Shown here: one piece after another, positions 4,564 to 35,189 of the stretch
Layout: every line of letters begins with the position of its first letter
Numbering within the stretch: position 1 is the first letter of the stretch
Source of the DNA: an uncultured Lentimicrobiaceae bacterium
GTDB lineage: Bacteria > Bacteroidota > Bacteroidia > Bacteroidales > 4484-276
Direction of reading: 5' to 3'
Assembly (NCBI GenBank): GCA_964395075.1
Contig: CAYNDN010000002.1
Location: 1,678-36,866 of the forward strand
Length of the DNA: 35,189 nt
Notes under the pieces: generated by a model
Told to the model about the DNA's origin: nothing
The model's database searches: none
The model's input: only the letters and a program-made list of their open reading frames with translations
Program-made: the position numbers and the translations under genes

Positions 4564-4591
4564 AGCCGGCTATTGTTGTCGGCTTTTTTTT
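4564..4591 (+). terminator. Rho-independent terminator after yebC
   Basis: AGCCGGC-tattgtt-GTCGGCT forms a 7-bp stem with one G.U pair, followed by T8. It lies 26 nt after the stop codon. Confidence 0.6.
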
Positions 4592-4659
4592 ATTAACAGA
4601 AATTTTAATTTACTTAAAAAGAGCGAATTACCGGCTGCCCGAATTATTAACAAACCATC

Positions 4660-19800: not shown

Positions 19801-22800
19801 GGGATGAATGGAACACCATTATGCTTGATGCAATGCATACAATTGATGCATCACAGGAACTCTGGATTGGATTCCACGTTGTGCATGCAGATGGTGAATA
19901 TCCATTAGGATATGATGAAGGCCCTGCTGTAGCCGGATATGGTGATATGGTTTCATTTGATGGTGTGGACTTCGTTTCGATGGCCAATGAATACTCTATC
20001 GATAACAACTTCAACCTCCATGCTTTTGTTGCCGAAGAAACTGATGGTGTTATCAGCAACAAGCAGCCATTACCAATGCCTGGTGCAACTGTAACAAACA
20101 CTGAACTTGCTACTACCGAATTAAGGCCCACTGAAGCCCCAACTAACAGCAGGGGTTTTGTTGGTATTAATATATACAGGGATGGCATGGTCGTAAATGC
20201 TGATCCCGTTGCTCCCGGAGTGCAGGCTTACACAGATGCTTTCTTTGAGAATGGAACATACATGTATTATGCAACTGCTGTTTATGATGACGGCGAATCT
20301 GTTCCAACTGCAATGGTTGAAGTAACCATCGACATGGGTGCCGGTCCTGAAATTTCAGTAACTCCGGAATCGATGTATGAAACACATGTTGTACCTCCTG
20401 CACAGCAAACCACACAGGAACTCATGATTACCAACACCGGTACAGAAACACTGGATTGGGAAATTGAACTTGATCTTGGCAGAGGTGCCGAGCCAACCAT
20501 GACTCCAATGGATCCGGCAGAATATCAGCAATTGCTCAATGAGCGTATGCTTGCTGAAGGTGTTGCCCTTCCAAGTACAGGTCTTGCACCAAGAGGTTCT
20601 TATGAGCCATTGACAGGTGCAACAGGTAATCCGCTCAACACACGCGAAACATTCTATGCATACAATGCGTATGATCCAAGTGGTGCTTTGGCTGAAGGCC
20701 CGGCATACTTCGATAGCGAAACTCCTGGTGTTATTACCCAACTTGCGCCAACCACAAGTAGCGACTTTATCGCTGGTGGTTGCTGGGCAGCCGACGTATG
20801 GTGGGGTGTTCAGTATGGTGGTGGCCTTTACACCATCGATAACGAAACCGGTGACATGACATTTGTAGGTAATAGCCCTGACTGCAGTGGCCTTGCTTTT
20901 GACGGAACAACTGTTTATGGTGCTTCAATTACCGACCTCTATGAAATTGATCCTGCAACAGGACAAGGTACAATGATCGGTTCAATGGGTAACCCAAGTG
21001 GCCTGATGATTGCCATTGCTTGTGATGCCAATGGCGACCTTTATGGTTTTGATATTGGTGACGATACATTCTACAGCATTGATAAAGGAACCGGCGCAGC
21101 TACAGCTATTGGCGTAATGGGTCCGAACTTTAACTATGCTCAGGATATGGCATTCGATAAGGATAATGATGTATGTTACCTGGCCGGATATACCACTGCT
21201 GGTGGCCTCTACACTGTTGATGTAGCTACCGGTGCTGCCACACTCGTTGGAGAATTCCAGGGCGGTGCTGAAATGACTGCAATGGCTATTCCTTATGCAG
21301 GTGTAACTTACGAAAATGACATCAGCCTTTCTTCCATTGTTTCTCCTGTAACCGGCGTTGAACTCTCCGCTGCAGAAGATGTGATCATTAAAATTAAGAA
21401 TAATGGTACAGCTCCTCAGTCAGGTTTTGATTGGGAAGTTACATGGGATGGCCCAACAGGCCCCGGATCATATAGTGGTGTTTACAGCGAAACGCTTGCC
21501 GCCGGTGAATCGGTTGAAGCAAATGTTGGAACTGCTGACCTCTCAGTTTATGGTGATTATACTTTTGAAGCTTGTGTAACACTTGTTGGTGATGAAAATC
21601 CGGATAATGACTGCAAAACCAAAATGGTTACCAACAACGAGCCAAGTCTCTGTATTGATGGTCTCTATACATCAGGTTGTGGATTTGGCGACGGTCTGAT
21701 CTCATGGAACTTTGCTAACGTTGATGTTCCTGATATCCCATGTTCTGGTACACCGGAATGGTATCATGATTATACAGATATGGTTCATGCATTTGACGCT
21801 GGTGAAACCTATACACTGACCGTTGTTGCCGGTTACGCATCAACCAACTTTGATGTTTGGATCGACTGGAACGATGATCTTGACCTCACCGATGATGAAA
21901 TTATCCTTAACGATGGTGCTTGTACTGATGCCAACGTACCTTATACATTTGAAGTTACTATTCCGGCAGATGCTCCTGGTGGAGACCATATCCTGAGGTT
22001 TAGGACCAACTGGATTGATCCTGTTTTGGATGCCTGTGAAACTTACTCTTATGGTAACTGCTGCGATTTCAAAGCCAATGCAGGTGGTGGACAACCAAGT
22101 GAATGGCTCTCTGTTGATATGATGAGCGGTTCTGTAGAACCTGGTGATACACAAACTGTGATGGTTATGTTTGATTCTGAAGGCCTTGATCTTGGATTGT
22201 ACGAAGGTATGGCTATGGTAACAAGCAACGCAACAAATACCCCAACTGTTGAAGTATCTTGCACACTCGACGTTACTGATGAGCAGCTACCGGTTGCTAT
22301 TGAAGTTGATCCGGAATCACTCACAGAAACACATACAATTCCCGGTCCTCAGGTAACAACTCAGGAAGTTACCATTACCAATACAGGTGAAACCGATGAT
22401 CTGGATTGGGAAATTGCCGTTGATCTTGGTACTTCACCAAGCCAGCACATGGACGCCGAAGAATACGCACGTTTACTCGAAGAACGTCAGGCTTATGAAG
22501 GACAACCTGCCAATGACGTTCAATATGGAGTAACTCCGGGTTATAACGTAACAGGTGGAAACCACTACAGCAAGTTCCAGGTTTCAGACGGAACACGTGA
22601 TGTACTTTATGACAATGGTCCATTCATCACTGCTGAAGGTGTTGGTTCTAACGGATCAGACTACAGTGAGTTGCAGGATGCATCTCTTGGAATGGGAACC
22701 TATGGTTCAGGTGTACAGCTGAGTGCAGGAAACTCACTTGCTGACGAATTTGAAGTAACCGGAACATGGATCGTAAACAGCATTACTGTTTATGGTTATC

Positions 22801-25800
22801 AAACTGGTTCAGGTCCGCCATCAACACTTACCGGTGTTTACATGCAAATTTGGGATGGTAACCCAACATCTGGCGGATCAGTTATTTGGGGTGACCTCAC
22901 AACCAACATCATGTCCTCAACAGAATGGACAAACGTATGGCGTGTGCTGGAATCAGGCCCAACAGAAAATCGTCCGATTATGCAGGTTGTTGCTGACCTC
23001 GGTGGGTTAGCATTGAATGCCGGCACATACTGGATTGAGTACTCACTGGATGGTACAGGTGCTTCAGGCCCGTGGAACCCACCGGTAACGATTGTAGGCG
23101 AAACCACAACAGGTAATGCACTGCAAAATCAATCAGGTACTTGGGTAGCTCTTGAAGATGTTGGCCCACAGGGTATTCCTTTCATTGTTGAAGGTTTTGA
23201 AGGACAGCAGCCAGGTGATGACGTTAGCATCTCAGCTATTGTTGAACCCATGTCAGGTGTTGAACTTGGATCAGCTGAACCAATTACAATCACACTGAAG
23301 AACAATGGTACCAATGCACAAACAAGTATCCCATGGGAAGTTTCTTATGACGGCCCAACAGGCATGGAAACTTTCTCAGGTACATGGACAGGTAACCTTG
23401 CTTCAGGCGAAAGCCTTGACGTTACACTCGCTGAAACAGCTGACCTCTCAGCTTTTGGTGATTATGATTTCGAAGCCTGTACCATGCTTCCAGGCGATGA
23501 GTATCCTGATAATGATTGCAAAACCAAAACTGTTACCAACGATGAACCAAGCCTCTGTGTTGATAACCTCTACACATCAGGTTGTGGATTTGGTGATGGG
23601 CTGATCTCATGGAACTTTGCTAACATCGATGTTCCGGATATCCCATGTTCAGGTACTCCTGAATGGTATCATGACTACACTGATATGGTACACGAATTTA
23701 ACGCCGGTGAAACATATACACTTACTGTTGTTGCCGGTTATGCCACTACAAACTTTGATGTATGGATCGACTGGAATGACGACCTCCTCCTCACCGATGA
23801 CGAACTCATCCTTGATGATGGTGCTTGTGCTGATGCCAACGTGCCTTACACATTTGAAGTTACTATTCCTTCAAGTGCAACAGGTGGCGACCATATCCTG
23901 AGGTTCAGAACAAACTGGATTGATCCTGTTGTTGATCCTTGCGAAACATACAGCTATGGTAACTGCTGCGATTTCAAAGCTAACGCTGGCGGTGGCTCAG
24001 GTGGAGACGACTGGTTGTCAGTTGATATGATGAGCGGCTCACTGAGTCCCGGTCAATCTGAAACTGTAACTGTTACCTTCAACTCCGAAGATCTTGCTGT
24101 TGGCGTTTACAATGGTGCACTCATGATTACAAGTAATGCACAAAACAACCCAATGGTTGAAGTTCCTTGTACCCTTACCGTTGAGGAAGAAGGTGGTAAC
24201 ACTGTAGTATTCGAACCATTCGAAGACTATGTTGCTGATGACTATCTGGTTGCACAAGCTATTGCTCAGGGTAAAGAATACTGGACAACCTGGAGCGAAT
24301 CACCAGGTGGTGCAGAAGACCCATTTGTTAAAGATGACCAGGCTTATGAAGGGTCAAACTCTATGGTGATAGAAGGCACAAACGATGCTGTACTGATCAT
24401 GCCTGAAAATTATAGCTCAGGGCAGTTTAACATCGACTTTATGGTTTACATCCCAACAGGCAAGATTGGATACTTCAACGCTCTCCAGTTATTTGCTGGT
24501 ACTGCTAGTGAATGGGGTATGCAAGCATACTTTGATGTTGGAGGTGCTGGTTTGGTTGATGCCGGTGGTGCAGGTGCAGGTGCTTTCACCTATACTTACG
24601 ACACATGGCACAATGTGGAAATGATGATCGACCTCGACGCTGACAATGCAGAAATGTATTTCAATGGCGACATGATCGTTCAATGGCAGTGGAGTACCGG
24701 TTCATTCGGTACAGGTACACTCAATGAGTTCCACGCTATGAACTTCTATGCATGGGCTGAAAACGGTACACCAGGTGCTTACTTCGATAATATTGATATC
24801 ACAAAAGATGGTGGCGGTGAATTGCCAGATCCACCAATCAACTTTGTTGGTACCGATAGTGGTTCAGATGCATTGCTTTCATGGGAATATCCAGGCATAT
24901 TCGAACCAACCTGGATTACATATTCTGGTGAAGAGATCACCAACTCAATAGGTACAAACGCCGCTGCAAACTTTGATGTTGCTGCACGTTGGGAACCTGC
25001 TGATCTCACCGGATTTGAAAATGGTGCAGTAACCAAGATCAACTTTGTTCCTGGTGAACCTGGCGACATTTGTACATACACATTAAAAGTATGGCAAGGT
25101 GCCGGCAACCCAACACTGATTTATGAGCAGGAACTTACAGAAGTTGTTGCTGATGTGTGGAATGAAGTTACTCTGGATACTCCGGTTCCGTTTGATAATA
25201 CCCAGGAGCTCTGGATCGGTTTCAACAACAACACTACCGCAGGATTCCCCGCCGGATGTGATGATGGTCCACAGGATGAAGGCCTCGGTAACATGATGTT
25301 CTGGGAAGGTTCATGGGTAACCCTCACATCACTCAACCCGGATCTGATTTACAACTGGGCTGTTCAGGGTTACATCGAATTTGCCGGTGATGCTGAAGCA
25401 TTGCTGCCTATCGAAGGTGAACCTGTGGTAGTTGAAAACGAAGGAGATCTTGCATTGAATCCTGTTAAGATCACACCTCCGGCTATATTCATACCAGAAT
25501 CAGCAAGATCACTTACCTTCAACGTTTATCGTGATGGTGTAAAAATTGCTGAAGAAATTACCGGATTATCATACATTGATTCCGACCTCAATGCTGGTAC
25601 TTATGTTTATTATGCTACTGCTGTTGTTGATGATGTGGAATCTAATCCTTCAAATGAAGCAACAGTTGTAATTACAAGCATCAACGAACTCGCTGCTTCT
25701 TCATTCAAGGTATATCCTAACCCAACAAACGGCGTTGTAAATATCGAATCCGACCTCGAGCTGAAATCAGTTAAACTGGTTAACCTCACCGGACAGGTTG

Positions 25801-25925
25801 TTTACAGTGCACCGGTTAACGGTTCAACAATTCAGTTCAATGCAAGTGAATTCACCACAGGTGTTTACACACTGCAAATCGAAACTGAGGTTGGCGTTGC
25901 AGTACACAAGCTGATTATTCAGTAA
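16869..25925 (+). CDS. Giant modular secreted protein 1 (3018 aa), T9SS cargo. Module order: SP-A-B-C-B-E-D-F-G-E-B-C-H-G-A-B-C-H-I-D'-F-CTD
   Basis: It is one uninterrupted 9057-nt ORF. The signal peptide is MKQITSLWLLMFFFASTALFAQ. It contains CARDB-like, GEVED-like, propeller-like, Fn3-like, Ig-like and LamG-like modules and a type-A T9SS sorting domain at the C-terminus. Confidence 0.9.
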   Translation: MKQITSLWLLMFFFASTALFAQTASTGLAKQAANPDLDQQKMEMMQNLNAETQPGVLPGVNQTNGNHYSKFQGPNGTRDVLYDNGPFVTAEGVGSNGTDYSELQDASLGMGTYGSGVQLSAGNSLADEFEVTGTWIVNSITVYGYQTGSGPPSTLTGVYMQIWDGDPTAGGSVIWGDLTTNIMESTEWTNAWRVLESGPTENRPIMAAVAEIGGEVFNAGTYWIEYSLDGSGASGPWNPPVTIVGETTTGNALQNQSGTWVALEDVGPQGIPFVVEGFEGQPPANDVSISAIVEPVSGVDLTAAEPVTITIKNNGTDEQSDIPYEVTWDGPTGTQTVSGTFAGPLASGATEDVTLAETADLSAYGTYDFEACTMLAGDEYPDNDCKTKTVTNDEPSLCIENLYTSGCGFGDGLISWSLENIEVPDIPCSGTPEWYHDYTDQVHNLPPGDYDLTVVAGYGSTYFDVWIDFNDDLLLTDDELVLDDAVCTDANVPYVFTVSVPSGAAPGQHVLRFRTNWIDPVLDPCETYSYGNCCDFSALIGDAPANDVGVTSIDMATFYEPGMVTPMATVKNFGTDTQTFDVTLTIDGYSSTMNVAGLASGATEQVTFDDWNATEGSFTAEACTDLSGDENPNNDCKTLGITVMEGQFVYAYNAYDPSGALVEGPVSFDLALPGMVNLIAPTTSTDFIAGGCWAADTWWGVQYGGGLYTIDTETGDMTLVGSSPDCSGLAFDGSTVYGASITDLYTIDPATGQGTMIGPMGNTGALMIGIGCDAAGNLYGFDIGDDNFYSIDKVTGAATLVGSTGQNFNYAQDMSFDKANDVCYLSGYTTTGGLYTVDVATGAATLLGEFQGGAEITGFAIPGAGLPPAGPPPTAFDANFFEGSGVETEWIDPQEMGTWIGYDDGENVGGLGLNGGGEYWAAIRWEPADLTPFDGQYITKFQFFPSLFAVEADITFMIWEGADAATMVYEQVLSNLDWDEWNTIMLDAMHTIDASQELWIGFHVVHADGEYPLGYDEGPAVAGYGDMVSFDGVDFVSMANEYSIDNNFNLHAFVAEETDGVISNKQPLPMPGATVTNTELATTELRPTEAPTNSRGFVGINIYRDGMVVNADPVAPGVQAYTDAFFENGTYMYYATAVYDDGESVPTAMVEVTIDMGAGPEISVTPESMYETHVVPPAQQTTQELMITNTGTETLDWEIELDLGRGAEPTMTPMDPAEYQQLLNERMLAEGVALPSTGLAPRGSYEPLTGATGNPLNTRETFYAYNAYDPSGALAEGPAYFDSETPGVITQLAPTTSSDFIAGGCWAADVWWGVQYGGGLYTIDNETGDMTFVGNSPDCSGLAFDGTTVYGASITDLYEIDPATGQGTMIGSMGNPSGLMIAIACDANGDLYGFDIGDDTFYSIDKGTGAATAIGVMGPNFNYAQDMAFDKDNDVCYLAGYTTAGGLYTVDVATGAATLVGEFQGGAEMTAMAIPYAGVTYENDISLSSIVSPVTGVELSAAEDVIIKIKNNGTAPQSGFDWEVTWDGPTGPGSYSGVYSETLAAGESVEANVGTADLSVYGDYTFEACVTLVGDENPDNDCKTKMVTNNEPSLCIDGLYTSGCGFGDGLISWNFANVDVPDIPCSGTPEWYHDYTDMVHAFDAGETYTLTVVAGYASTNFDVWIDWNDDLDLTDDEIILNDGACTDANVPYTFEVTIPADAPGGDHILRFRTNWIDPVLDACETYSYGNCCDFKANAGGGQPSEWLSVDMMSGSVEPGDTQTVMVMFDSEGLDLGLYEGMAMVTSNATNTPTVEVSCTLDVTDEQLPVAIEVDPESLTETHTIPGPQVTTQEVTITNTGETDDLDWEIAVDLGTSPSQHMDAEEYARLLEERQAYEGQPANDVQYGVTPGYNVTGGNHYSKFQVSDGTRDVLYDNGPFITAEGVGSNGSDYSELQDASLGMGTYGSGVQLSAGNSLADEFEVTGTWIVNSITVYGYQTGSGPPSTLTGVYMQIWDGNPTSGGSVIWGDLTTNIMSSTEWTNVWRVLESGPTENRPIMQVVADLGGLALNAGTYWIEYSLDGTGASGPWNPPVTIVGETTTGNALQNQSGTWVALEDVGPQGIPFIVEGFEGQQPGDDVSISAIVEPMSGVELGSAEPITITLKNNGTNAQTSIPWEVSYDGPTGMETFSGTWTGNLASGESLDVTLAETADLSAFGDYDFEACTMLPGDEYPDNDCKTKTVTNDEPSLCVDNLYTSGCGFGDGLISWNFANIDVPDIPCSGTPEWYHDYTDMVHEFNAGETYTLTVVAGYATTNFDVWIDWNDDLLLTDDELILDDGACADANVPYTFEVTIPSSATGGDHILRFRTNWIDPVVDPCETYSYGNCCDFKANAGGGSGGDDWLSVDMMSGSLSPGQSETVTVTFNSEDLAVGVYNGALMITSNAQNNPMVEVPCTLTVEEEGGNTVVFEPFEDYVADDYLVAQAIAQGKEYWTTWSESPGGAEDPFVKDDQAYEGSNSMVIEGTNDAVLIMPENYSSGQFNIDFMVYIPTGKIGYFNALQLFAGTASEWGMQAYFDVGGAGLVDAGGAGAGAFTYTYDTWHNVEMMIDLDADNAEMYFNGDMIVQWQWSTGSFGTGTLNEFHAMNFYAWAENGTPGAYFDNIDITKDGGGELPDPPINFVGTDSGSDALLSWEYPGIFEPTWITYSGEEITNSIGTNAAANFDVAARWEPADLTGFENGAVTKINFVPGEPGDICTYTLKVWQGAGNPTLIYEQELTEVVADVWNEVTLDTPVPFDNTQELWIGFNNNTTAGFPAGCDDGPQDEGLGNMMFWEGSWVTLTSLNPDLIYNWAVQGYIEFAGDAEALLPIEGEPVVVENEGDLALNPVKITPPAIFIPESARSLTFNVYRDGVKIAEEITGLSYIDSDLNAGTYVYYATAVVDDVESNPSNEATVVITSINELAASSFKVYPNPTNGVVNIESDLELKSVKLVNLTGQVVYSAPVNGSTIQFNASEFTTGVYTLQIETEVGVAVHKLIIQ
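17058..18480 (+). repeat. A-B-C module block, copy 1 (gene 1)
   Basis: It is collinear with 22554..23976 at a constant offset of 5496 nt, and with 27026..28445 in gene 2. Confidence 0.85.
18807..19462 (+). repeat. E module (propeller-like, four LY-ID--TG--T-VG repeats), copy 1
   Basis: QFVYAYNAYDPSGALVEGP...LYTVDVATGAATLLGEFQGGAEITGFAIPGAG. It is repeated at 20649..21303 (offset 1842 nt) and at 28769..29420 in gene 2. Confidence 0.8.
20649..21303 (+). repeat. E module, copy 2 (gene 1)
   Basis: TFYAYNAYDPSGALAEGP...LYTVDVATGAATLVGEFQGGAEMTAMAIPYAG. Long stretches are amino-acid identical to copy 1. Confidence 0.8.
22554..23976 (+). repeat. A-B-C module block, copy 2 (gene 1)
   Basis: Landmarks are shifted by exactly 5496 nt relative to copy 1: 17064/22560, 17721/23217 and 18045/23541. 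The A part is about 90% nucleotide-identical by eye. Confidence 0.85.
25678..25922 (+). other. Type-A T9SS C-terminal sorting domain of gene 1
   Basis: FKVYPNPTNGVVNIESDLELKSVKLVNLTGQVVYS...FTTGVYTLQIETEVGVAVHKLIIQ matches the Por secretion CTD pattern (YPNP ... G..V ... GVY.L.I ... K.I.). Confidence 0.85.
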
Positions 25926-25946
25926 TCCTTAATTGGAACACAATAG

Positions 25947-25979
25947 AAAAAGGGAGCCCATCGGGTTCCCTTTTTTTTT
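25947..25979 (+). terminator. Rho-independent terminator of gene 1
   Basis: GGGAGCCC-atc-GGGTTCCC (8-bp stem with one G.U pair) is followed by T9. It lies 27 nt after the stop. Confidence 0.85.
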
Positions 25980-26265: not shown

Positions 26266-26302
26266 TTTGCATTTCACTAATCAATATATTAACTTTACAC
26301 CC
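26266..26302 (+). promoter_or_regulatory. Orphan copy of the giant-gene promoter cassette (TTTG-N20-TAACTTTA-CACCC), facing palindromic unit U1
   Basis: TTTGCATTTCACTAATCAATATATTAACTTTACACCC aligns with the cassettes at 26755 and 33579. The U1 left arm starts 9 nt after the -7 box. Confidence 0.4.
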
Positions 26303-26305
26303 ATT

Positions 26306-26398
26306 AAACTGTCAGACAGTTTTTGCTATTCCTAAAAAATCAAATTTACACAGATATTTCATGTATTCTTTAAGGGTCATATAAACTGTCTGACAGTT
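26306..26398. repeat. Palindrome-bounded unit U1 (93 bp)
   Basis: The left arm is AAACTGTCAGACAGTTT (26306-26322) and the right arm is AAACTGTCTGACAGTT (26383-26398). It is nearly identical to U2. Confidence 0.9.
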
Positions 26399-26435
26399 AA
26401 TTCTGACTAACAACACTAAAAATTGAAATGCACCA

Positions 26436-26473
26436 GGAAAAATGAAAAGTACAGACGCCCAATTTGGGCGTCT
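26436..26473 (-). terminator. Strong hairpin AGACGCCC-aattt-GGGCGTCT with a T-rich tail on the minus strand
   Basis: The perfect 8-bp GC-rich stem spans 26453-26473. Minus-strand downstream sequence is GTACTTTTCATTTTTCC. It lies 12 nt after the end of the frameshifted small ORF. Confidence 0.55.
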
Positions 26474-26484
26474 CTACGGATGCC

Positions 26485-26614
26485 TCATTCGTTAAAGAAA
26501 TGCATACGTAATTGCCAGAATAAAGAAATTTCCACACAATTATTGGAATTCACTATGCTCAGCAATTATTCGATAAGCCTCTTCCTCCCAAATCCTTTCA
26601 TTTCTCTTTTTCAT
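26485..26614 (-). pseudogene. Degenerate small ORF (24 codons, then a frame shift, then about 19 codons); possible RelE/ParE-like toxin remnant
   Basis: The minus strand reads MKKRNERIWEEEAYRIIAEHSEFQ* (26614..26540). The adjacent frame continues NNCVEISLFWQLRMHFFNE* and ends at 26485, just before the terminator. The YRII...VEI..W..RM pattern loosely recalls RelE/ParE C-terminal halves. Confidence 0.25.
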
Positions 26615-26634
26615 ATAGTAACTTTACACCCATG

Positions 26635-26726
26635 AAACTGTCAGACAGTTTTTGCTATTCCTAAAAAATCAAATTTACACAGATATTTCATGTATTCTTT
26701 AAGGGTCATATACTGTCTGACAGTTT
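26635..26726. repeat. Palindrome-bounded unit U2 (92 bp)
   Basis: The left arm is AAACTGTCAGACAGTTT (26635-26651) and the right arm is ACTGTCTGACAGTTT (26712-26726). It differs from U1 by a 2-nt deletion next to the right arm. Confidence 0.9.
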
Positions 26727-26754
26727 ACACCAATAACTTCTCCCGCCATTAACC

Positions 26755-26790
26755 TTGCATTTCACGATTCAAAATATTAACTTTACACCC
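26755..26790 (+). promoter_or_regulatory. Candidate promoter of giant gene 2 (TTG-N20-TAACTTTA)
   Basis: The -33 TTG is at 26755-26757 and the -7 box is at 26778-26785, 39 nt before the ATG. The whole cassette and the 5' UTR end (AAACCCAATTACCTATGAAAAAAG) are conserved upstream of gene 3. Confidence 0.5.
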
Positions 26791-26824
26791 TTATTATTTC
26801 TCAATTCTCTAAACCCAATTACCT

Positions 26825-29800
26825 ATGAAAAAAGTTTTTACACTCCTTGCGCTTTTGTTCCTGGCCTCCACACTAACTGTTCATGCACAAACTGCCGAAA
26901 ATACCGGGCAATCAAAATCCCTCACCGATACTGACCAACTGAAAATTGAGTTGCAGCAAAATCACAAAGTTCAGCAACACCAGGATAGGCTCCCAAATGT
27001 TGGCTCCGGCACCCAAAATCCCAAAGGTGTACATTACAGTCACTATCAAAACAAGAACAACCGTGACTTCGTAATTTGGGACAATGGCCCCATCATCACC
27101 GATTCCTTAGCCGGGAGCAGCGGTTCACACTACAGCCGCTTGCAGGACACAACACTTGGCATGGAAACATTTGGTTTTGGATGCCAGCATTCAGCAGGAA
27201 ATTCCATTGCCGACGACTTTGAAGTTATTACGGATTGGGAAATTCATAAAATTACAGTTTATGCCTACCAAACCGGATCAGATCCGCCGTCAACATTTAC
27301 AGGTGTTTATATGCAAATTTGGGATGGTGATCCAACAGCTGGCGGCTCAGTAATTTGGGGTGACCTTAATACAAACGTCCTTGAATCAACAGAATGGACA
27401 AATATTTGGCGGGTCAATGAATCTGCTCCGGAAGAAAACCGCCCGATCATGGCAGTTGTTGCTGATGTTACATATATTTTACTCGATGCAGGAACCTATT
27501 GGCTCGAATATTCGCTTGATGGCACTGGAACATCCGGACCCTGGAATCCACCAGTTACTATAACTGGCGAGACCACCACAGGTAATGCTATACAAAATCA
27601 ATCCGGAAACTGGGTTGCGCTCACCGATTTTGGTCCACAGGGTATTCCTTTTATTATTGAAGGGAGTCCGGGTGCATGGGCAATAGATGATGTAGCGGTA
27701 TTTTCAATCCTTGAACCTGCTTCCGGAATAAACCTTGGAAATGCAGAACCGATAACTGTGAGACTTTTTAATAATGGTGCTGATACCCAAACCAGTATTC
27801 CGGTAGAGGTGAGCATGAATGGCCCAACAGGAAGTGTAATGATTTCAGAAACATGGTCCGGAAGCCTTAGTATAGCTCAAACTGTGGATTTCACACTCAC
27901 CCAAACTATGGATTTATCAGTTTTTGGTGATTATGAAATTGAGGCATGCACCCAACTTCCAGGCGATGAGAATCCAGACAATGATTGTAAAATCAAGACT
28001 GTTACTAACTTCGAGCCAAGCCTCTGTATTCCTGATTATTCGAACGGTTGTGGATATGGTGATGGTTTGATTTATTGGTCACTGGAAAATATTGAAGTTC
28101 CGGATATTCCTTGTTCCGGAGTACCAGAATGGTATCATGATTACCGCGACATGATACATAACCTGACTTTTGGTGATTTTGATCTGACAGTTGTTGCTGG
28201 TTATTCAACAACAAATTTTGATGTTTGGATAGATTTTAATGATGATTTGTATTTTTCAAACGAGGAATTAGTATTAAACGATGCCCAATGTGTTGATGCT
28301 AATGTTCCTTACACATTTACCATTACTGTGCCTACATATGCTGTTCCTGGTGAGCACTTCCTTCGTTTCCGCACAAACTGGATTGACCTGGTGACTCATG
28401 AATGCCAAACCTATAGCTATGGCAATTGTTGTGATTTTTCAGCGGACATATTGCCTCCGTTAATTATGGATGTAGGTGTTGAATTCATTGATATGCTGGA
28501 CTTCTATGAACCTGGCATTATTATTCCTAAAGCAACCCTAAAGAATTTTGGTATGGGTATGTGGACATTTGATGCAATTATGACCTTCGGCAACTATAGC
28601 TCAACAGTTGAGGTCACCGATTTAATTCCGGGGTCAAGCCAACAGGTGATTTTCGACACCCTCGAAATAGGGCCCGGAACTTACACCGCTGAAGTTTGCA
28701 CATTTCTTCCTGAGGATGAAAATCCCGCCAATGACTGCAAAACAAAAACCATAACCGTTGTGGAGGGCGAAACCTGGTATGCCTACCTGGCCGAAGACCC
28801 TTCAGGCACGCTGGTAGAAGGCCCGGTGAACTTCGATCCATCCGCACCCGGTGGAATTACTCAACTTGCCCCAACCTCCAGCAACGAAATCATTACCGGC
28901 GCATGCTGGGCGGGTGATACCTGGTGGGGATGTCAGCAGGGTGGAGGGCTTTATTGGATTGACCACACAAACGGAGATATGACTTTTGTGGGTGATGGCC
29001 CTGCACTCAATGGCCTTGCCTTTGACGGTACTGTGGTTTACGGAGCTTCTGATACAGAACTTTTTGAGATAGATCCGGCAATCGGACAGGGAACCCCCAT
29101 TGGTATAATGGGTAATGCCGGCGGGCAGATGATGGGGATTGCCTGCAATGAGAATGGTGATCTGTTTGGCTTCGATGTGGGCGATGATACATTTTACAGC
29201 ATCGATAAAGCCACCGGAGCAGCCACAGCTATCGGGCCGTTGGGTTACAATTTTGAAGGCCCGCAGGATATGGCTTTCAACAAGGCCACGGGCCAGTGCT
29301 ACTTAACAGGTTACACCACCACCGGGGGGCTTTATGCGGTGGATATAAATACAGGTGCTGCAAGTCTGATTGCTGAGTTTCCTGATGGAATCAGGTTGGC
29401 CGGCTTTGCCATTCCTGATGCTGCACCACCCCCTGTTGGTGATCCCCCACAGGGCTTCGATGCTCAGTTTGTTGAAGGTGTTGGCGTGGAATGTTCCTGG
29501 GGTATGAATACGCCCAACGAAGCCTGGCTTGGCTTTGATGATGGAACAAATAGTAATAATCAGTATAATTATTCTGGAATTATCTGCAACGCTATTAACC
29601 TGGATAGGTATATACTTTATGATTATGATGAATGGGAGCTCACACACATAAAGCTTTTTCCAAACAAAGTTACTGATGAATCAGAAATTACTCTGAAGGT
29701 ATGGTCCGGTATGAATCCCGTAACTTTGATTCATGAGCAGGCTATTGAGAACCCCAACTGGAATACATGGAATACGATTCAACTGACAAATTCGGTCACC

Positions 29801-32800
29801 ATTAATTCAACAGTAGGTTTATTGGTTGGATTTCAATACAGTGCTCCGGAGGGTGAACAGCCCATAGGCCATGATGATGGGCCGGCTGTTGCCGGTTACG
29901 GTGATTTGGTTTCTATGGAAGGCGTGTACTTTTATAGTTTAAAATATGCCATAGGGGCTGATTTAAATTTCAACATACATGCATTTGTTCAGGAAAACCC
30001 AGGAGAAGAGTACGTGGTTCTGAGTCCTCACCTTCAAGGCTATCCGGACAATTCAGGCATTTCAAACAGTACAGAAGTAAAAAGTGAAAGCAACCCAAAG
30101 CTTGAATTTCTTGGTGTAAATATTTACCGCGATGGCAACCAGGTAAATAGTAATCTCATCGAACCTGGAGTTACGGAATACATCGATCCATTTTTCGATC
30201 CCGGAACCTGGACTTACACGGCAAGGGCCGTTTACGATGAAGGACTTTCTGATCCCACACCGGGAGTGGAGGTAATAATTCCGGGAACATCGCAAATCTC
30301 CGTTGCCCCTGATTCCATTTTCGAAATCCATGAAACCCCACCCCAAATCACCACACAGGAACTCACCATCACCAATACCGGCGATGAACCGCTGGAATGG
30401 GAAATTGCGATTGATTTTGGAAATGAAAAATCAAAAATTCAGAAAATATCAACAAAGGAATTTGCAAGGCTTTCTGGCAACAGCATGAATAACGATGTGG
30501 GTATTTGGTCGATTGTTGAACCCGCTTCGGGTGTTTACCTCGGCAACGAAGAGCCCGTCACCATCAAGATTCAAAATTATGGAGGCGAAACCCAGACGGA
30601 AATACCCTGGGAAGTAACATGGTCAGGGCCTACCGGAGGCGAAACCTTTTCAGGTACCTGGACTGGCAGCCTCTCAACAGGTGAGGAGGTGGACATTACC
30701 CTCGACGAAACAGTGGACATGTCGGTGTTTGGAGATTATGAATTCGAAGCCTGCACTCAGCTTTCGGGTGATGAAAACCCGGATAACGATTGCAAAACAA
30801 AATGGATAGGCTGTGTGGCACCATCACTTTGTATCGAGAATCTTTATTCTTCAGGCTGTGGTTTTGGCGATGGATTGATTTCATGGCAATTAGCAAATGT
30901 TGATATTCCCGATATTCCCTGTTCAGGAGAGCCGGAATGGTACCACGATTACACTGGCCAGGTGCATCAGTTAGAGGCAGGTGAGACATACTCCCTGATT
31001 GTTGAGGCCGGTTATGAAAGCACATATTTTGATGTGTGGATCGACTGGAACGATGACCTCCAACTCACCGATGATGAACGCATTGTAGATGACGGTTTTT
31101 GCTCATCACCCAATACACCCTACGTTTTCGAAATTGTAACCCCGGCTTCCGCACCGATTGGTAATCATGTGCTGAGGTTTAGAACCAACTGGGTTGATGT
31201 TGTTTTAGACCCATGCGAAACCTACCAGTATGGCAATTGCTGTGATTTTGGTGCTAATCTTATAGGTATTACGCCAATGGAAGACTGGCTATCGGTTGAT
31301 ACAACCAGCGGCGTTATAGCGTCAGGAGCATCACAAATTGTTACTGCAATATTCAATTCCGAAGATTTCTATGCGGGTTCTTATGAGGCTGATATGGTGA
31401 TTTTAAGCAATGATCCTGAAAACCCGGAAGTTATTGTGCCGGTGAGTTTATCAGTTGCCGACACGGTATTACCTGCTTCAATCATTTTTGAGCCCTTTGA
31501 AAGCTACCTGGCCGGTGATTACCTCGTACAACAGGCCGTTGCCCAGGGCAAGGAATACTGGACCACCTGGAGCGGAAGCCCGGGAACTGTCGAAGACCCA
31601 TTCGTTTCAGATTTCTATGCTTACGAAGGCTTTAACGCGATGGTGATCGAAGAATCGAATGATGCGGTATTGGTATTGCCCGAAAATTATACCTATGGCG
31701 TATTTTACGTGGATTTTGAGGTTATGGTACCTGCCGGAAAAACAGGTTATTTCAACTGTTTGCAATCCTTTGCAGGAACAAGCAGCGAATGGGGAATGCA
31801 ATGTTTCCTTGATGTTGACGGAGCAGGCTCTGTAGATGCAGGCGGTGAGGGAAGTGGATCGTTTACCTATGAATACGATGAGTGGAATCATGTACAAATG
31901 ATGATTGATCTGGACGAAGATCACGCCGAAATGTATTTTAACGATGATTTAATTGTGGAATGGCAATGGAGCACAGGCAGTTTTGGAACAGGATCATTAA
32001 ATGCGTTTCATGCGATGAACTTTTTTGCCTGGAGCGATAATGGTACGCCAGGTGCTTTCTTTGATAATATTGACATATCCGTACCGGAAACAAACTTTTT
32101 ATTGCCACCCAACAATTTTACGGGATATGTTGACTGGCTGGGATTTGGTTTCGAGTGGATGCCACCCGGTAGTTTCGAACCACAGTGGATCACTTATTCC
32201 CAGGAAGAAATCAATAATTCCATCGGCACAAATCAAGAGATCAATTTTGATGTTGCAGCGCGCTGGGAACCCGCCGACTTAACCAACTTTGTAACCGGAG
32301 CCGTAACAAAAATAAACTTTGTTCCTGGCGAACCGGGCGATATTTGTACCTATTCGCTCAGGGTATGGCAGGGCAGCCAACCAGACCCTACCCTGATTTA
32401 TGATGAGGTACTCACCGAAATTGTGTCAGATGTATGGAACGAAATAGAACTGGAAAATCCGGTACCGTTTGATAACTCCCAGGATTTATGGATTGGTTTC
32501 AATTGCAATACAACCTCGGGATTTCCGGCTGGTTGCGATGACGGTCCACAGGATGAAGGATTGGGAAATATGATGTTTTGGGAAGGAGAATGGGTGACGC
32601 TGTCTTCTTTAAACCCCGATCTGATATTCAACTGGGCAATCATGGCATATATCGAAAGCAGCCCGCTAAATGAGCCGCCCACACCGCTTTCAATAACCTA
32701 TCCACAGCATAATAGTGGTGGGCAGTTTACGCTTTGCCCTCAATTGATTGATCCTCCTGCAGTGTTCAGCCCCGACAATGTGGCCGCTACGCTGCTGGGC

Positions 32801-33214
32801 TATAACCTTTACAGGGACGGGGAAATTATCCTGGAGGCATATCCGGGCACCGATTATTTTGATGGTGATGTTGATGCCGGGATATTGTATGAGTATTACC
32901 TTACCGCCTTGTACGATGTGGGAGAATCGCCGCCAACTCAAACCTTATACCTGGAGATACCGGATGGCATTGAAGAAGTTGCGCAGGATGCTGTTCAATT
33001 GTATCCAAATCCTGCAGGTGAGCAGCTAAATATTTCTTCTGAACTGGAAATCCTTAGCATCAATTTGTACGATGTAAAAGGTGTTAATATTTTCAAAATT
33101 GATGAATCAGGAACAAATTTTCAAATCAACACCTCACACCTCAAACCCGGCGTCTATACTCTGCAATTAGAAACAGAAAAGGGATTGTCGGTGCATAAGT
33201 TGGTTATAAGATAA
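26825..33214 (+). CDS. Giant modular secreted protein 2 (2129 aa), T9SS cargo. Module order: SP-A-B-C-B-E-D-F-G-B-C-H-I-D'-F-CTD
   Basis: It is one uninterrupted 6390-nt ORF. The signal peptide is MKKVFTLLALLFLASTLTVHAQ. It is collinear with the first roughly 1200 aa and the last roughly 900 aa of gene 1. Confidence 0.9.
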   Translation: MKKVFTLLALLFLASTLTVHAQTAENTGQSKSLTDTDQLKIELQQNHKVQQHQDRLPNVGSGTQNPKGVHYSHYQNKNNRDFVIWDNGPIITDSLAGSSGSHYSRLQDTTLGMETFGFGCQHSAGNSIADDFEVITDWEIHKITVYAYQTGSDPPSTFTGVYMQIWDGDPTAGGSVIWGDLNTNVLESTEWTNIWRVNESAPEENRPIMAVVADVTYILLDAGTYWLEYSLDGTGTSGPWNPPVTITGETTTGNAIQNQSGNWVALTDFGPQGIPFIIEGSPGAWAIDDVAVFSILEPASGINLGNAEPITVRLFNNGADTQTSIPVEVSMNGPTGSVMISETWSGSLSIAQTVDFTLTQTMDLSVFGDYEIEACTQLPGDENPDNDCKIKTVTNFEPSLCIPDYSNGCGYGDGLIYWSLENIEVPDIPCSGVPEWYHDYRDMIHNLTFGDFDLTVVAGYSTTNFDVWIDFNDDLYFSNEELVLNDAQCVDANVPYTFTITVPTYAVPGEHFLRFRTNWIDLVTHECQTYSYGNCCDFSADILPPLIMDVGVEFIDMLDFYEPGIIIPKATLKNFGMGMWTFDAIMTFGNYSSTVEVTDLIPGSSQQVIFDTLEIGPGTYTAEVCTFLPEDENPANDCKTKTITVVEGETWYAYLAEDPSGTLVEGPVNFDPSAPGGITQLAPTSSNEIITGACWAGDTWWGCQQGGGLYWIDHTNGDMTFVGDGPALNGLAFDGTVVYGASDTELFEIDPAIGQGTPIGIMGNAGGQMMGIACNENGDLFGFDVGDDTFYSIDKATGAATAIGPLGYNFEGPQDMAFNKATGQCYLTGYTTTGGLYAVDINTGAASLIAEFPDGIRLAGFAIPDAAPPPVGDPPQGFDAQFVEGVGVECSWGMNTPNEAWLGFDDGTNSNNQYNYSGIICNAINLDRYILYDYDEWELTHIKLFPNKVTDESEITLKVWSGMNPVTLIHEQAIENPNWNTWNTIQLTNSVTINSTVGLLVGFQYSAPEGEQPIGHDDGPAVAGYGDLVSMEGVYFYSLKYAIGADLNFNIHAFVQENPGEEYVVLSPHLQGYPDNSGISNSTEVKSESNPKLEFLGVNIYRDGNQVNSNLIEPGVTEYIDPFFDPGTWTYTARAVYDEGLSDPTPGVEVIIPGTSQISVAPDSIFEIHETPPQITTQELTITNTGDEPLEWEIAIDFGNEKSKIQKISTKEFARLSGNSMNNDVGIWSIVEPASGVYLGNEEPVTIKIQNYGGETQTEIPWEVTWSGPTGGETFSGTWTGSLSTGEEVDITLDETVDMSVFGDYEFEACTQLSGDENPDNDCKTKWIGCVAPSLCIENLYSSGCGFGDGLISWQLANVDIPDIPCSGEPEWYHDYTGQVHQLEAGETYSLIVEAGYESTYFDVWIDWNDDLQLTDDERIVDDGFCSSPNTPYVFEIVTPASAPIGNHVLRFRTNWVDVVLDPCETYQYGNCCDFGANLIGITPMEDWLSVDTTSGVIASGASQIVTAIFNSEDFYAGSYEADMVILSNDPENPEVIVPVSLSVADTVLPASIIFEPFESYLAGDYLVQQAVAQGKEYWTTWSGSPGTVEDPFVSDFYAYEGFNAMVIEESNDAVLVLPENYTYGVFYVDFEVMVPAGKTGYFNCLQSFAGTSSEWGMQCFLDVDGAGSVDAGGEGSGSFTYEYDEWNHVQMMIDLDEDHAEMYFNDDLIVEWQWSTGSFGTGSLNAFHAMNFFAWSDNGTPGAFFDNIDISVPETNFLLPPNNFTGYVDWLGFGFEWMPPGSFEPQWITYSQEEINNSIGTNQEINFDVAARWEPADLTNFVTGAVTKINFVPGEPGDICTYSLRVWQGSQPDPTLIYDEVLTEIVSDVWNEIELENPVPFDNSQDLWIGFNCNTTSGFPAGCDDGPQDEGLGNMMFWEGEWVTLSSLNPDLIFNWAIMAYIESSPLNEPPTPLSITYPQHNSGGQFTLCPQLIDPPAVFSPDNVAATLLGYNLYRDGEIILEAYPGTDYFDGDVDAGILYEYYLTALYDVGESPPTQTLYLEIPDGIEEVAQDAVQLYPNPAGEQLNISSELEILSINLYDVKGVNIFKIDESGTNFQINTSHLKPGVYTLQLETEKGLSVHKLVIR
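27026..28445 (+). repeat. A-B-C module block, copy in gene 2
   Basis: It is homologous to 17058..18480. It includes a 41-nt run identical to gene 1 (27299-27339 = 17334-17374). Confidence 0.8.
28769..29420 (+). repeat. E module, copy in gene 2
   Basis: ETWYAYLAEDPSGTLVEGP...LYAVDINTGAASLIAEFPDGIRLAGFAIPDA. Confidence 0.75.
32960..33211 (+). other. Type-A T9SS C-terminal sorting domain of gene 2
   Basis: VQLYPNPAGEQLNISSELEILSINLYDVKGVNIF...LKPGVYTLQLETEKGLSVHKLVIR. Confidence 0.85.
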
Positions 33215-33223
33215 AACGCTGAT

Positions 33224-33265
33224 AGCAACCACTCCGGAGTATGTTTCTGGGTGGTTGCTGTTTTT
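33224..33265 (+). terminator. Rho-independent terminator of gene 2
   Basis: AGCAACCAC ... GTGGTTGCT (9-bp stem, 18-nt loop) is followed by GTTTTT. It lies 10 nt after the stop. Confidence 0.75.
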
Positions 33266-33277
33266 AATACCGTTATG

Positions 33278-33369
33278 AAACTGTCAGACAGTTTTACTAA
33301 TCCGAAAACAACATTTTCCAGCAAGCATTTTATGTAACCTTTAAAGGTCATTTAAACTGTCTGACAGTT
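33278..33369. repeat. Palindrome-bounded unit U3 (92 bp)
   Basis: The left arm is AAACTGTCAGACAGTTTT (33278-33295) and the right arm is AAACTGTCTGACAGTT (33354-33369). Confidence 0.9.
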
Positions 33370-33432
33370 AAAGGGCCTATTTCGCTCATAATGGTAATAA
33401 TTGTCGAGTGGCTGATTCCTTCAATATTCATG

Positions 33433-33526
33433 AAACTGTCAGACAGTTTTTACCAATCCCCAAAACAACATTTTCCAGCAAGCATTTTATGTAACCTTTA
33501 AAGGTCATTTAAACTGTCTGACAGTT
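33433..33526. repeat. Palindrome-bounded unit U4 (94 bp)
   Basis: The left arm is AAACTGTCAGACAGTTTT (33433-33450) and the right arm is AAACTGTCTGACAGTT (33511-33526). It is nearly identical to U3. Confidence 0.9.
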
Positions 33527-33578: not shown

Positions 33579-33614
33579 TTGCATTTCCCTTTTCAATATA
33601 TTAACTTTACACCC
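33579..33614 (+). promoter_or_regulatory. Candidate promoter of giant gene 3 (TTG-N20-TAACTTTA)
   Basis: The -33 TTG is at 33579-33581 and the -7 box is at 33602-33609, 37 nt before the ATG. It is the same cassette as upstream of gene 2. Confidence 0.5.
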
Positions 33615-33646
33615 ATATTATCTTAAATCTCAAAACCCAATTACCT

Positions 33647-35189
33647 ATGAAAAAAGTATTTATATTCCTTGTGCTGGTTTTGCTCAACTCCACATCAAGA
33701 ACTTTTGCCCAAATGGGTGATCCACCTTCCGGTTTCACAGCTGATTTTGTTAAAGATGTTGGCGTGGAATGCTCCTGGGGCATGGCTTCACCTCCAACCT
33801 GGTTAGGGTACGATGATGGAGTGAATGCCGGCGGCCTTGGGGCAAATGGCGGAGGCTCATTTTATGTTGCCATTCGCTGGGATTCAGCAGACCTTATTCC
33901 ATATAACGGAAGCTCTTTGACGGCTTTTAAGTTTTTCCCGTTGATGTTTGCCGTTCCTTCCGAGATTACCTTTCATATCTGGGAAGGTAACATTTCTCCA
34001 CAGGTTGTTTATGAACAGGTGCTTCAGAATTTAAACTGGAACGAATGGAATACCATTTACCTGGATGAACCCTACATCATAACTGCTGAACAGGATTTGT
34101 ATGTGGGCTTTAAAGCTACGCATCCTGATGGAGAAGATCCAATCGGCTATGATGATGGCCCCGCCATTTCCGGTTATGGCGATTTAATTTCGTTTGATGG
34201 TACGAATTGGGTAAGCATGAGTGTTGAATTTGGTATGGATAATAATATTAACCTGCAAATATTAGTGGAGGAAGACCCGGATGTACAAGTTATAACAAAC
34301 CCCGGAAACTCGAAGTTAGAATTTCTTGGAATAAATATTTACCGGGATGGCAACCTGGTTAATGGCACCCTCATCGAACCGGGCGTTGAACATTATACTG
34401 ATCCTTTTTTCGATCCCGGAACCTGGACATACACAGCAAGGGCTGTTTACGATGAAGGCCTATCTGAGCCTACCCCGGGAGTTGAGGTAATCATCCCTTA
34501 TGGTCCGCAGATAGCAGTAGAACCCGATGAATTGAATGAAGTCCATAACGCTTTTCCACAAGTTTCGGCACGTGATCTCGTAATAACCAACACCGGTGAT
34601 GAACCGCTGGAATGGGAGATTGAAATTGAGCTGGAAACAAAGCAAACCCAAAAGCAACCCATGGATCCCGATGAATATGCAAAGCTGTTGGCTGAAAGGC
34701 GGGCACAGGAAGGCTTTCAGGCAAATGATGTGCAGCCCGGAGTAATTCCCGGCAATCCTCAAACCAACGGAAATCATTATAGCAAATACCAGCGTAAAAA
34801 CGGAAGCAAGGATATTGTTTTCGATAATGGCCCCTTTATTACTGCTGAAGGTGTTGGTTCAAATGGCTCAGATTACAGTGAATTACAGGATGCAACTTTG
34901 GGTATGGGAACCTATGGATTTGGCTGCCAGATTTCAGCGGGCAACTCCATTGCTGATGATTTTGAATTGACCGGCCCACACAGTATCCCGTATATCGTAT
35001 TTTATGCCTACCAAACAGGTTCCGGACCTCCATCAACCATAAACGATGTGCGAGTACAAATTTACGATGGAGATCCTTCCAACGGTGGAAATGTAATCCA
35101 CGGTGACCTAAGCACTAATGTTTTGTTATCAACAGAGTGGACCAACGTATGGCGGGTGTGGGAATCATATCCCCAGGAAAACCGGCCTA
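33647..35189 (+). CDS. Giant modular secreted protein 3, N-terminal 514 codons (open at the window end). Module order: SP-D-F-G-linker-A...
   Basis: It is not in the ORF track because it has no stop codon in the window. Manual translation from ATG 33647 gives MKKVFIFLVLVLLNSTSRTFAQMGDPPSGFTADFVKDVGVECSWGMASPPTWLGYDDG...INIYRDGNLVNG...ITNTGDEPLEWEIEIE...DPDEYAKLLAERRAQEG...NGNHYSKYQRKNGSKDIVFDNGPFITAEGVG...ENRP. It has no stop and is homologous to modules D, F, G and A of genes 1 and 2. Confidence 0.85.
   Translation, partial: MKKVFIFLVLVLLNSTSRTFAQMGDPPSGFTADFVKDVGVECSWGMASPPTWLGYDDGVNAGGLGANGGGSFYVAIRWDSADLIPYNGSSLTAFKFFPLMFAVPSEITFHIWEGNISPQVVYEQVLQNLNWNEWNTIYLDEPYIITAEQDLYVGFKATHPDGEDPIGYDDGPAISGYGDLISFDGTNWVSMSVEFGMDNNINLQILVEEDPDVQVITNPGNSKLEFLGINIYRDGNLVNGTLIEPGVEHYTDPFFDPGTWTYTARAVYDEGLSEPTPGVEVIIPYGPQIAVEPDELNEVHNAFPQVSARDLVITNTGDEPLEWEIEIELETKQTQKQPMDPDEYAKLLAERRAQEGFQANDVQPGVIPGNPQTNGNHYSKYQRKNGSKDIVFDNGPFITAEGVGSNGSDYSELQDATLGMGTYGFGCQISAGNSIADDFELTGPHSIPYIVFYAYQTGSGPPSTINDVRVQIYDGDPSNGGNVIHGDLSTNVLLSTEWTNVWRVWESYPQENRP
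34766..35189 (+). repeat. A module, partial copy in gene 3
   Basis: NGNHYSKYQ...DNGPFITAEGVGSNGSDYSELQDATLGMGTYGFGCQ...YQTGSGPPST...ENRP aligns with 17058.., 22554.. and 27026... Confidence 0.8.

Follow-up and report, generated by a model that had tools for sequence, protein, structure and literature searches.

The stretch of DNA examined here, referred to throughout as the window, is a 35,189-nucleotide segment of contig CAYNDN010000002.1 from an uncultured Lentimicrobiaceae bacterium. Between positions 16869 and 35189 it contains three tandem, paralogous giant genes for proteins with GEVED, CARDB and DUF4394 domains that are secreted by the type IX secretion system (T9SS), and the intervals between these genes hold four units of about 92 nt (U1 to U4), each of which is bounded by two short palindromic arms. 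The units are most probably doublets of repetitive extragenic palindromic (REP) sequences, that is, non-autonomous elements resembling REPINs (REP doublets forming hairpins), which belong to Lentimicrobiaceae-type Bacteroidota and have as their partner a Y1 HUH enzyme, the REP-associated tyrosine transposase (RAYT). The features of the locus are listed below by window position, the giant genes being given as context only.

16869..25925, plus strand: giant gene 1 (3018 aa), with GEVED, CARDB and DUF4394 domains and a T9SS C-terminal sorting domain
25945-25977: terminator-like hairpin after gene 1
26267..26304, plus strand: promoter-like copy P', TTGCATTTCACTAATCAATATAT-TAACTTTA-CACCCAT, truncated at the left arm of U1
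26306..26398: U1, probable REP doublet; A-centred arm 26307-26321, 62-nt interior, T-centred arm 26384-26398
26399..26634: U1-U2 spacer of 236 nt, holding a degenerate promoter-like copy (26596-26633) that abuts U2; conserved in the homologous locus L081
26635..26726: U2, probable REP doublet; arms 26636-26650 and 26711-26725
26755..26790, plus strand: promoter-like segment of giant gene 2, beginning 28 nt past U2
26825..33214, plus strand: giant gene 2 (2129 aa), paralogous to gene 1 and likewise equipped with a T9SS sorting domain
33278..33369: U3, probable REP doublet; arms 33279-33293 and 33355-33369
33370..33432: U3-U4 linker of about 62-63 nt, AAAGGGCCTATTTCGCTCATAATGGTAATAATTGTCGAGTGGCTGATTCC..CATG, part of a 155-nt tandem period of unit plus linker
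33433..33526: U4, probable REP doublet; arms 33434-33448 and 33512-33526
33579..33615, plus strand: promoter-like segment of giant gene 3, beginning 52 nt past U4
33647..35189, plus strand: 5' part of giant gene 3, cut off by the end of the window, with an upstream region paralogous to that of gene 2

Arms, promoter-like segments and arrays at the giant-gene locus

The four units were confirmed at the positions given for them in a preliminary description of the window, and their eight arms conform to the sequence AACTGTC[A/T]GACAGTT (AAACTGTC[A/T]GACAGTT). A search of the window for AACTGTCWGACAGTT with up to two mismatches returned eight true arms (26307, 26384, 26636, 26711, 33279, 33355, 33434 and 33512), seven of them exact and one, the right arm of U2 at 26711, with a single mismatch and an adjacent 2-nt deletion. 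The only additional match, at 11755, had two mismatches, was intragenic and was judged to be due to chance; as had been reported, no similar arms were present in the other 34 kb of the window, for which 0.03 matches were expected from shuffled sequences. Each of the four left arms was centred on A and each of the four right arms on T, which bears out the earlier view that the left arm is the reverse complement of the right arm, as in a stem. Identity was 96.8% between U1 and U2 and 95.7% between U3 and U4, and fell to 76-78% over the whole unit (64-68% over the interior) when U1 and U2 were compared with U3 and U4. The divergence between the two pairs of interiors is therefore real, if somewhat less pronounced than its initial wording ('diverged heavily') implied.

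Bacteroidota promoters follow the consensus TTG / TAnnTTTG, and from this consensus promoter function is predicted for the segment TTGCATTTC...TAACTTTACACCC that precedes genes 2 and 3. The distances of 28 nt and 52 nt between the proximal units and the TTG of these segments had been given correctly; what had been overlooked was a further copy of the segment directly before U1 (P') and a degenerate copy before U2. Both copies (26267-26304 and 26596-26633) end in ...ACACCCAT, precisely at the left arm of the unit that follows, and the block made up of promoter fragment and unit is itself duplicated (122 nt, 92%). As the copies stop exactly at the left arms, an old insertion of a unit, or a unit-mediated rearrangement, just downstream of the -7 box is suggested. 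P' is nearly identical to the promoter-like segment before the next giant gene in L081, and transcription from the two copies could run into the units.

The closest homologue of gene 2 (57% identical) is located on L081, where the upstream and downstream intergenic regions are homologous to those of the window and contain five to six units each. The units of these arrays recur with a 155-nt period, consisting of one unit and a 62-nt linker that is the U3-U4 linker of the window, and interiors of both the U1 type and the U3 type are present (90% identity between U1 and L081_237, 91% between U3 and L081_7376). The arrangement in the window can thus be regarded as a short version of tandem arrays that vary in copy number. 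None of the loci retrieved for comparison overlaps the window. Across 14 homologous units, nucleotide diversity was 0.025 in the arms vs 0.18 in the interior, with 4 of 33 columns variable in the former and 30 of 61 in the latter, which supports the proposal that the arms are under selection. A more distant syntenic relative, L082 (giant gene 43% identical), has the same KsgA-TPR-SerS-L27-L21-EamA gene order in its neighbourhood and a single 3700-aa gene at the giant-gene position, and contained no arms in 21 kb.

A terminator-like hairpin also follows gene 2, and U3 and U4 lie downstream of it. Genes 2 and 3 have a common type of upstream region; that of gene 1 differs and is devoid of units, in agreement with the preliminary description. 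Within the U1-U2 spacer, a terminator-like hairpin, conserved also in L081, is present on the minus strand at 26453-26473 (AGACGCCCAAATTGGGCGTCT and then a T-rich stretch). Upstream of this hairpin the minus strand offers no convincing gene, the sole candidate being a 24-aa open reading frame (ORF) at 26540-26614. The units also contain small ORFs on the minus strand (MT[LF]K[EG]Y...), which were considered as coding sequences and rejected: the position of the stop codon moves between units, there was no Pfam match, and the differences between U1 and U3 show no synonymous bias (by eye). A minus-strand ORF in the linker, MNIEGISHSTIITIMSEIGP, was likewise rejected as a transposase remnant, having no Pfam match and belonging to the 155-nt period that the L081 arrays have as well. 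A search of the whole window against Rfam at gathering thresholds gave zero matches. Elsewhere the window is ordinary chromosome, with genes for a LuxR-type two-component pair, DnaE, SodA, KsgA, SerS and EamA.

Dispersal, folding and transposase association of the units

The distribution of the units was examined by scanning a single genome of each species for pairs of arms separated by 45-75 nt (ACTGTCWGACAGT N45-75 ACTGTCWGACAGT), exact 13-mers being required. Sixteen loci were obtained, 15 of which lie on separate contigs, seven and eight in number, of two metagenome-assembled genomes (MAGs), 'Bacteroidetes bacterium 4572_114' and an uncultured Lentimicrobiaceae bacterium, with exact arm pairs on seven to nine contigs each; the sixteenth, L011 from a 'Metamycoplasmataceae' genome, proved to be an unrelated 25-nt tandem repeat. 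A metagenome scan with the same pattern yielded 54 loci, about half of which were the same or related Lentimicrobiaceae-type loci. The others were discarded, being satellite-like tandem repeats (period 28, 31 or 64 nt) that are unrelated and happen to contain the 13-mer. Satellite repeats with ACTGTC[A/T]GACAGT were noted at L021, L024, L028, L038, L039, L043, L051, L058, L065, L067 and L073 and are apparently unrelated to the REP family. As exact arms were demanded and the MAGs are fragmented, the copy number obtained is a lower bound. Many units are located at contig ends, which fits a repeat at which assemblies break.

All 24 non-redundant sites were extragenic (outside ORFs of at least 120 aa), with 11 between tandem genes, three between divergent genes, two between convergent genes and eight at a contig end with one known neighbour. 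The neighbours include chorismate synthase (aroC), YchF-, Der-, ribosomal protein S16 (rpsP)- and IspG-like genes, response regulators and T9SS proteins, and the units, which frequently lie 3-15 nt past a stop codon, occur in both orientations relative to them. The motif is thus a generic dispersed repeat at extragenic sites beside unrelated genes, the very observation that the preliminary description had set against its own proposals. Its confinement, within the window, to the intervals between giant genes had been pointed out in the preliminary description; this local pattern is explained by tandem duplication of a gene together with its upstream region and from local amplification of the array. 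A second subfamily was observed in the same genomes, with arms AGCTGTCAGACAGTT, a spacing of 64-69 nt and a conserved interior motif ..ACACACTG.. (L008 6552-6635, L016 6947-7025, L001 4746 and L017 855).

The anatomy of the units was compiled over about 60 sites (61 oriented sites). With the sites oriented so that the centre base was A, the interior of the unit always lay 3' of the site, and 52 of the 54 neighbouring A-to-T pairs had a centre-to-centre spacing of 75-80 nt (mode 78). Arms were also seen singly, in nested sets and in direct arrays, in which A-A or T-T neighbours keep the same spacing. On the interior side, one arm is followed by GCCYG and frequently by CTTTATT, and the other by a T(T/A)(A/G)CG-like sequence; as the GCCYG-type and T[TA][AG]CG-type flanks are not complementary, the stem stops at the arms, and a hairpin extending past them was rejected. 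The 31 non-redundant interiors were AT-rich (31% GC) and unrelated in sequence. When the units were folded as single-stranded DNA, the arms paired to form a stem of 15-17 bp (-14 to -18 kcal/mol, z = -3.8 to -6), that of U1 being 16 bp long (-15.9 kcal/mol, z = -5.2). Each arm is in addition a near-perfect palindrome of 15-17 nt by itself, and the centre base would give the 5' and 3' arms different loops (CAG vs CTG) if they were folded singly, which might, speculatively, allow the two ends to be discriminated. No target-site duplication was visible at the unit boundaries.

The age of the units could be followed at the site downstream of aroC. In the reference, L042, an intact unit is situated 7 nt past the stop codon; in L084 (AroC 86% identical) the orthologous unit has a recognisable homologous interior and decayed arms (3 + 1 mismatches), in L083 (92%) a left-arm remnant only is left, and in L085 (83%), where synteny differs, there is no unit. 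A paralogous intergenic site in L048 (3720-3790) also has no unit and carries a different 44-nt palindrome, AAAATTTCCTTAGCGACTT/GAAGTCGCGAAGGAAATTTT, which may represent another REP-like family; the right-hand boundary coincides with the outer end of the T arm. The units are long-lived, vertically inherited and able to decay, and their long residence and decay explain much of the diversity of the interiors.

A candidate enzyme was found on L015, where arms cluster on both sides of a 196-aa ORF: four precede it, and two degenerate arms and two perfect ones follow it. Its product matched the NCBIfam family NF047646, 'REP-associated tyrosine transposase', over the full profile (E = 7.5e-17). It has 1055 homologues, mostly in Bacteroidota, nearly all of which are unnamed or called 'REP element-mobilizing transposase RayT'. 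PNHFH, the HUH motif, and YIHxNP, the tyrosine motif, were invariant among 15 aligned members, and a profile built from the family alignment matched E. coli TnpArep (PDB 4ER8, E = 9e-9). The three closest independent homologues (69%, 68% and 50% identical) are encoded on L017/L018, L019 and L020, and in all four independently assembled loci (L015/L041, L017/L018, L019 and L020) the RAYT gene has several arms on both sides. The units of L020, which comes from the same Joint Genome Institute (JGI) sample as L081 (3300040801), share the arm flanks of the window (CATGA-arm-TTTTACTA).

More distant homologues are flanked by other hairpins. L077 encodes a 48%-identical protein and has the same stem motif on both sides of the gene, as a single hairpin, AAGCTGTCAGACA-(10 nt)-TGTCTGACAGCTT; in L080 (Winogradskyella, 45%) a different perfect palindrome is found on both sides, and in L075 (46% identical to the L015 protein) the flanks are two other, mutually different long hairpins. 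In REP-RAYT pairs the repeats flanking the RAYT gene change along with the RAYT (PMC3337134, PMC5581495, PMC6006769), and the variation seen here follows the reported pattern. The motifs of the present clade (NHFH, LF[EQ] in place of WQ, and YIHLNP) are hints that it resembles the subclass 2.1 table entry of PMC6006769 at least as well as subclass 2.6. In L075 (10001-17925) and L076, the RAYT homologue was observed directly upstream of a type II CRISPR-Cas locus encoding a 1428-aa protein with HNH and RuvC domains, Cas1 and Cas2. Beside the RAYT gene of L015, at 4419-4606, an arm-33 nt-arm block is directly repeated on either side of a unit; the centre bases are A,A in the first copy vs T,T in the second, and the orientation of the 33-nt piece is kept. 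As the two blocks differ only in these bases, the centre base can change independently of the flanks.

Identity of the units and competing explanations

Five of the eight defining features of REP doublets and REPIN-RAYT systems are present, the details being atypical: a stem-loop palindrome, many extragenic sites, copies flanking the RAYT gene, a Y1 HUH partner and an inverted doublet. In single-stranded DNA, an A-centred arm would pair with the T-centred arm about 78 nt downstream to give a hairpin whose loop, of about 63 nt, is free to vary in sequence. E. coli TnpArep and the TnpA of IS200/IS605 suggest, by analogy, that the RAYT may bind such hairpins on single-stranded DNA, cut and rejoin them and in this way seed or maintain copies. 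Mobilisation is hinted at, indirectly, only by the absence of a unit from the paralogous L048 site and by its decay or absence at the orthologous aroC site. As the window has no RAYT, its own units would be passive copies. They are situated upstream of giant T9SS genes that are duplicated in tandem, in regions paralogous to one another, and have been amplified locally as an array of unit plus 62-nt linker whose copy number differs between relatives. The units are not a dedicated regulator or switch of the giant genes, for which no evidence of a specific role of the units was obtained, and any effect that they might have there, be it as an RNA hairpin, a transcriptional insulator or a recombination hotspot, would be incidental.

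Several observations weigh against this identification. No GT[AG]G is found at the foot of the hairpin, and no tetranucleotide was conserved outside the palindrome across the 61 oriented sites, where one arm has just a weak GCCYG towards the interior. A population of near-identical units at unlinked sites is also missing: the 31 non-redundant interiors are unrelated, and pairs with similar interiors always shared similar flanks, so that recent transposition of a whole unit is undocumented, and whole-unit copying was seen just locally, in tandem arrays. Two similar units 6 kb apart in L048 were considered as a case of recent transposition and rejected, since their flanks are segmentally duplicated. 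The number of copies is modest (tens, where classical REPINs have hundreds), and the perfection of the arms outside the window is in part a matter of ascertainment, exact 13-mers having been demanded and degenerate arms being known to exist. On the side of the enzyme, the score of 61.6 bits against NF047646 is below the curated cut-off of 80, the L015 ORF had no Pfam match, with none to Y1_Tnp at E < 0.01, and tblastn found no RAYT in the window, a search that covered the window rather than its whole genome. Cleavage and mobilisation of the units by the RAYT are themselves proposed by analogy with the two enzymes named above.

The preliminary description had offered three explanations, and that of a hairpin RNA or miniature inverted-repeat transposable element (MITE) came closest, in that the units are hairpin-forming, non-autonomous repeats; they are of the REP/RAYT kind rather than a MITE with terminal inverted repeats. 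It is improbable that the units act mainly as RNA, whether as a small RNA, a stabiliser of mRNA 3' ends, an RNase III target or a terminator or insulator between the giant genes. The 16-bp stem should be equally stable in RNA, the promoter-like copies end exactly at U1 and U2, many units follow stop codons at 3-15 nt, and effects of REPs on mRNA stability and termination are reported (PMC3733652). However, there was no Rfam match, the units have no conserved interior or loop and occur in both orientations relative to neighbouring genes, and U3 and U4 are situated downstream of the terminator-like hairpin after gene 2. Furthermore, an action as RNA would be a side effect on top of REP identity and not an alternative account of origin.

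An equally doubtful possibility is that a RAYT system installs or re-creates two arms about 78 nt apart around local DNA, with no copying of whole units. This would explain the fixed spacing despite unrelated interiors at unlinked sites, and also the direct arm-33 nt-arm blocks (A,A vs T,T) beside the L015 RAYT gene. If true, the installation of arms at a measured distance would be an undescribed mode of REP propagation.

It is very unlikely that the arms are paired operators, the first proposal of the preliminary description, at which a dimeric or tetrameric transcription factor regulates the giant genes through DNA looping. The arms are indeed near-perfect 15-17-bp palindromes of the T.GT...AC.A type, their spacing is tightly fixed at 75-80 bp, the promoter-like segments of genes 2 and 3 are preceded by units, and host proteins bind REPs in other bacteria (PMC6006769). 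The distribution, however, is not that of operators: arm pairs are also found after stop codons, between convergent genes and beside unrelated housekeeping genes, rather than confined to the promoters of a coherent regulon, they form tandem arrays of up to six units, and they lie on both sides of a transposase gene in four independent loci. The inverted relation of the centre bases, seen in 52 A-to-T pairs, is needless for a symmetric dimer, and a distance of 78 bp, about 7.4 helical turns, would place the two sites on different faces of the helix. The window, moreover, encodes no GntR/FadR-type regulator, only the LuxR-type two-component pair 23 kb away. Incidental binding of proteins to the arms is compatible with all of these findings.

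Less likely again is a conventional MITE with terminal inverted repeats, mobilised as double-stranded DNA by a DDE transposase. Units of about 92 bp that are extragenic and dispersed and have terminal inverted repeats of 15-17 bp would fit such an element, but their boundaries show no target-site duplication, their interiors are unrelated between sites, unlike those of MITE copies, and no DDE transposase with these ends was found. The direct arrays, nested sets and singletons, the crowding around a Y1 transposase gene, and the single short hairpin with the same stem that flanks a related RAYT also speak against it.

The least probable explanation, also raised in the preliminary description, is a small invertible promoter switch (inverton) in which a recombinase flips the interior of about 60 bp. 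Inverted repeats that are conserved across loci around variable interiors are known for the global invertase Mpi of Bacteroides; known invertible regions are far longer than 60 bp. The units share with the Mpi sites the conserved inverted repeats and variable interiors, the repeats are perfect with an orientation set by the centre base, and the -7 box TAAATTTG was indeed present on the minus strand of U1 and U2, but the interior had one and the same orientation in 25 of 25 same-locus comparisons across samples (at the level of assemblies), TAnnTTTG occurred three times in 31 interiors where 3.04 were expected, with no enrichment of internal promoters and no conservation of the box in U3, U4 or the closest homologous units of L081, the segment is far below known lengths, no recombinase is encoded in the window, and the associated enzyme is a single-strand HUH transposase and not an invertase.

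With the units identified as probable REP doublets, an attractive but wrong lead, that of a switch or operator devoted to giant genes for T9SS surface proteins, is removed. A pair of REP doublet and RAYT is documented in an uncultured lineage of Bacteroidota, REPINs having mostly been studied in Proteobacteria, and a full-text literature search turned up no paper dealing with REPs or REPINs from Lentimicrobiaceae or Bacteroidota. For REPIN biology, the points of interest are the self-palindromic arms, the fixed loop of about 63 nt without conserved sequence, and the hairpin with the same stem and a 10-nt loop at a related RAYT. For annotation and assembly, it is relevant that the repeat breaks MAG contigs and that variable arrays before surface-protein genes could pass for regulatory elements.

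Comparison with known systems

Transposases of the IS200/IS605 group recognise hairpins on single-stranded DNA. The present units are similar to IS200/IS605 ends and their miniature derivatives (palindrome-associated transposable elements, PATEs) in that the enzyme is a relative of the Y1 HUH transposase and no target-site duplication is made. They are unlike them in that no defined element, with a left end distinct from its right end, contains the transposase gene. Around the RAYT gene, the arms have no consistent left/right arrangement.

A likeness in arrangement is found in the bacterial interspersed mosaic elements (BIMEs) and REP clusters of E. coli and in REP dimers generally (Di Nocera et al. 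2013, PMC3733652), with repeats in alternating orientation and linkers. There, clusters consist of dimers reiterated in tandem together with flanking DNA, and the dimers have spacers of 20-100 bp whose length is kept though the sequence differs; the units share both the equal-length, sequence-variable spacer and the tandem reiteration with flanks. They differ from BIMEs in the sequence of the repeat, in having no GTAG or CGTC tag, and in linker and spacer types that are not those of BIMEs.

With regard to the enzyme, the system resembles the Bacteroidetes TnpA-REP genes 'flanked by atypical secondary structures' that were assigned to subclass 2.6 (Quentin et al. 2018, PMC6006769), both in a RAYT of about 180-200 aa with NHxH and YIHxNP motifs and in non-canonical hairpins that surround the RAYT gene and recur elsewhere in the genome. 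It differs from this subclass in its motifs, which fit subclass 2.1, reported to be without REPs, at least equally well, and in its split hairpin with a 63-nt loop, which is not described in PMC6006769.

REPINs consist of two inverted REPs and a spacer and are mobilised by a RAYT (PMC3337134). As in the REPIN-RAYT systems of Pseudomonas and Enterobacteria (Bertels and Rainey; PMC3116915, PMC3337134), the units combine inverted palindromic repeats with a spacer of fixed length and fold into one hairpin comprising the whole unit, are extragenic and dispersed, have copies flanking the RAYT gene, and are inherited vertically with decay. Unlike REPINs, they carry no GT[AG]G tag, their arms are just 15-17 nt long and self-palindromic, their known copies number tens and not hundreds, their spacers at unlinked sites are unrelated and do not form a population around a 'master sequence', and their host belongs to the Bacteroidota. 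Parts of the system are thus already described, REP dimers whose spacers agree in length but vary in sequence and clusters reiterated with their flanks in PMC3733652, and Bacteroidetes RAYTs with atypical secondary structures in PMC6006769.

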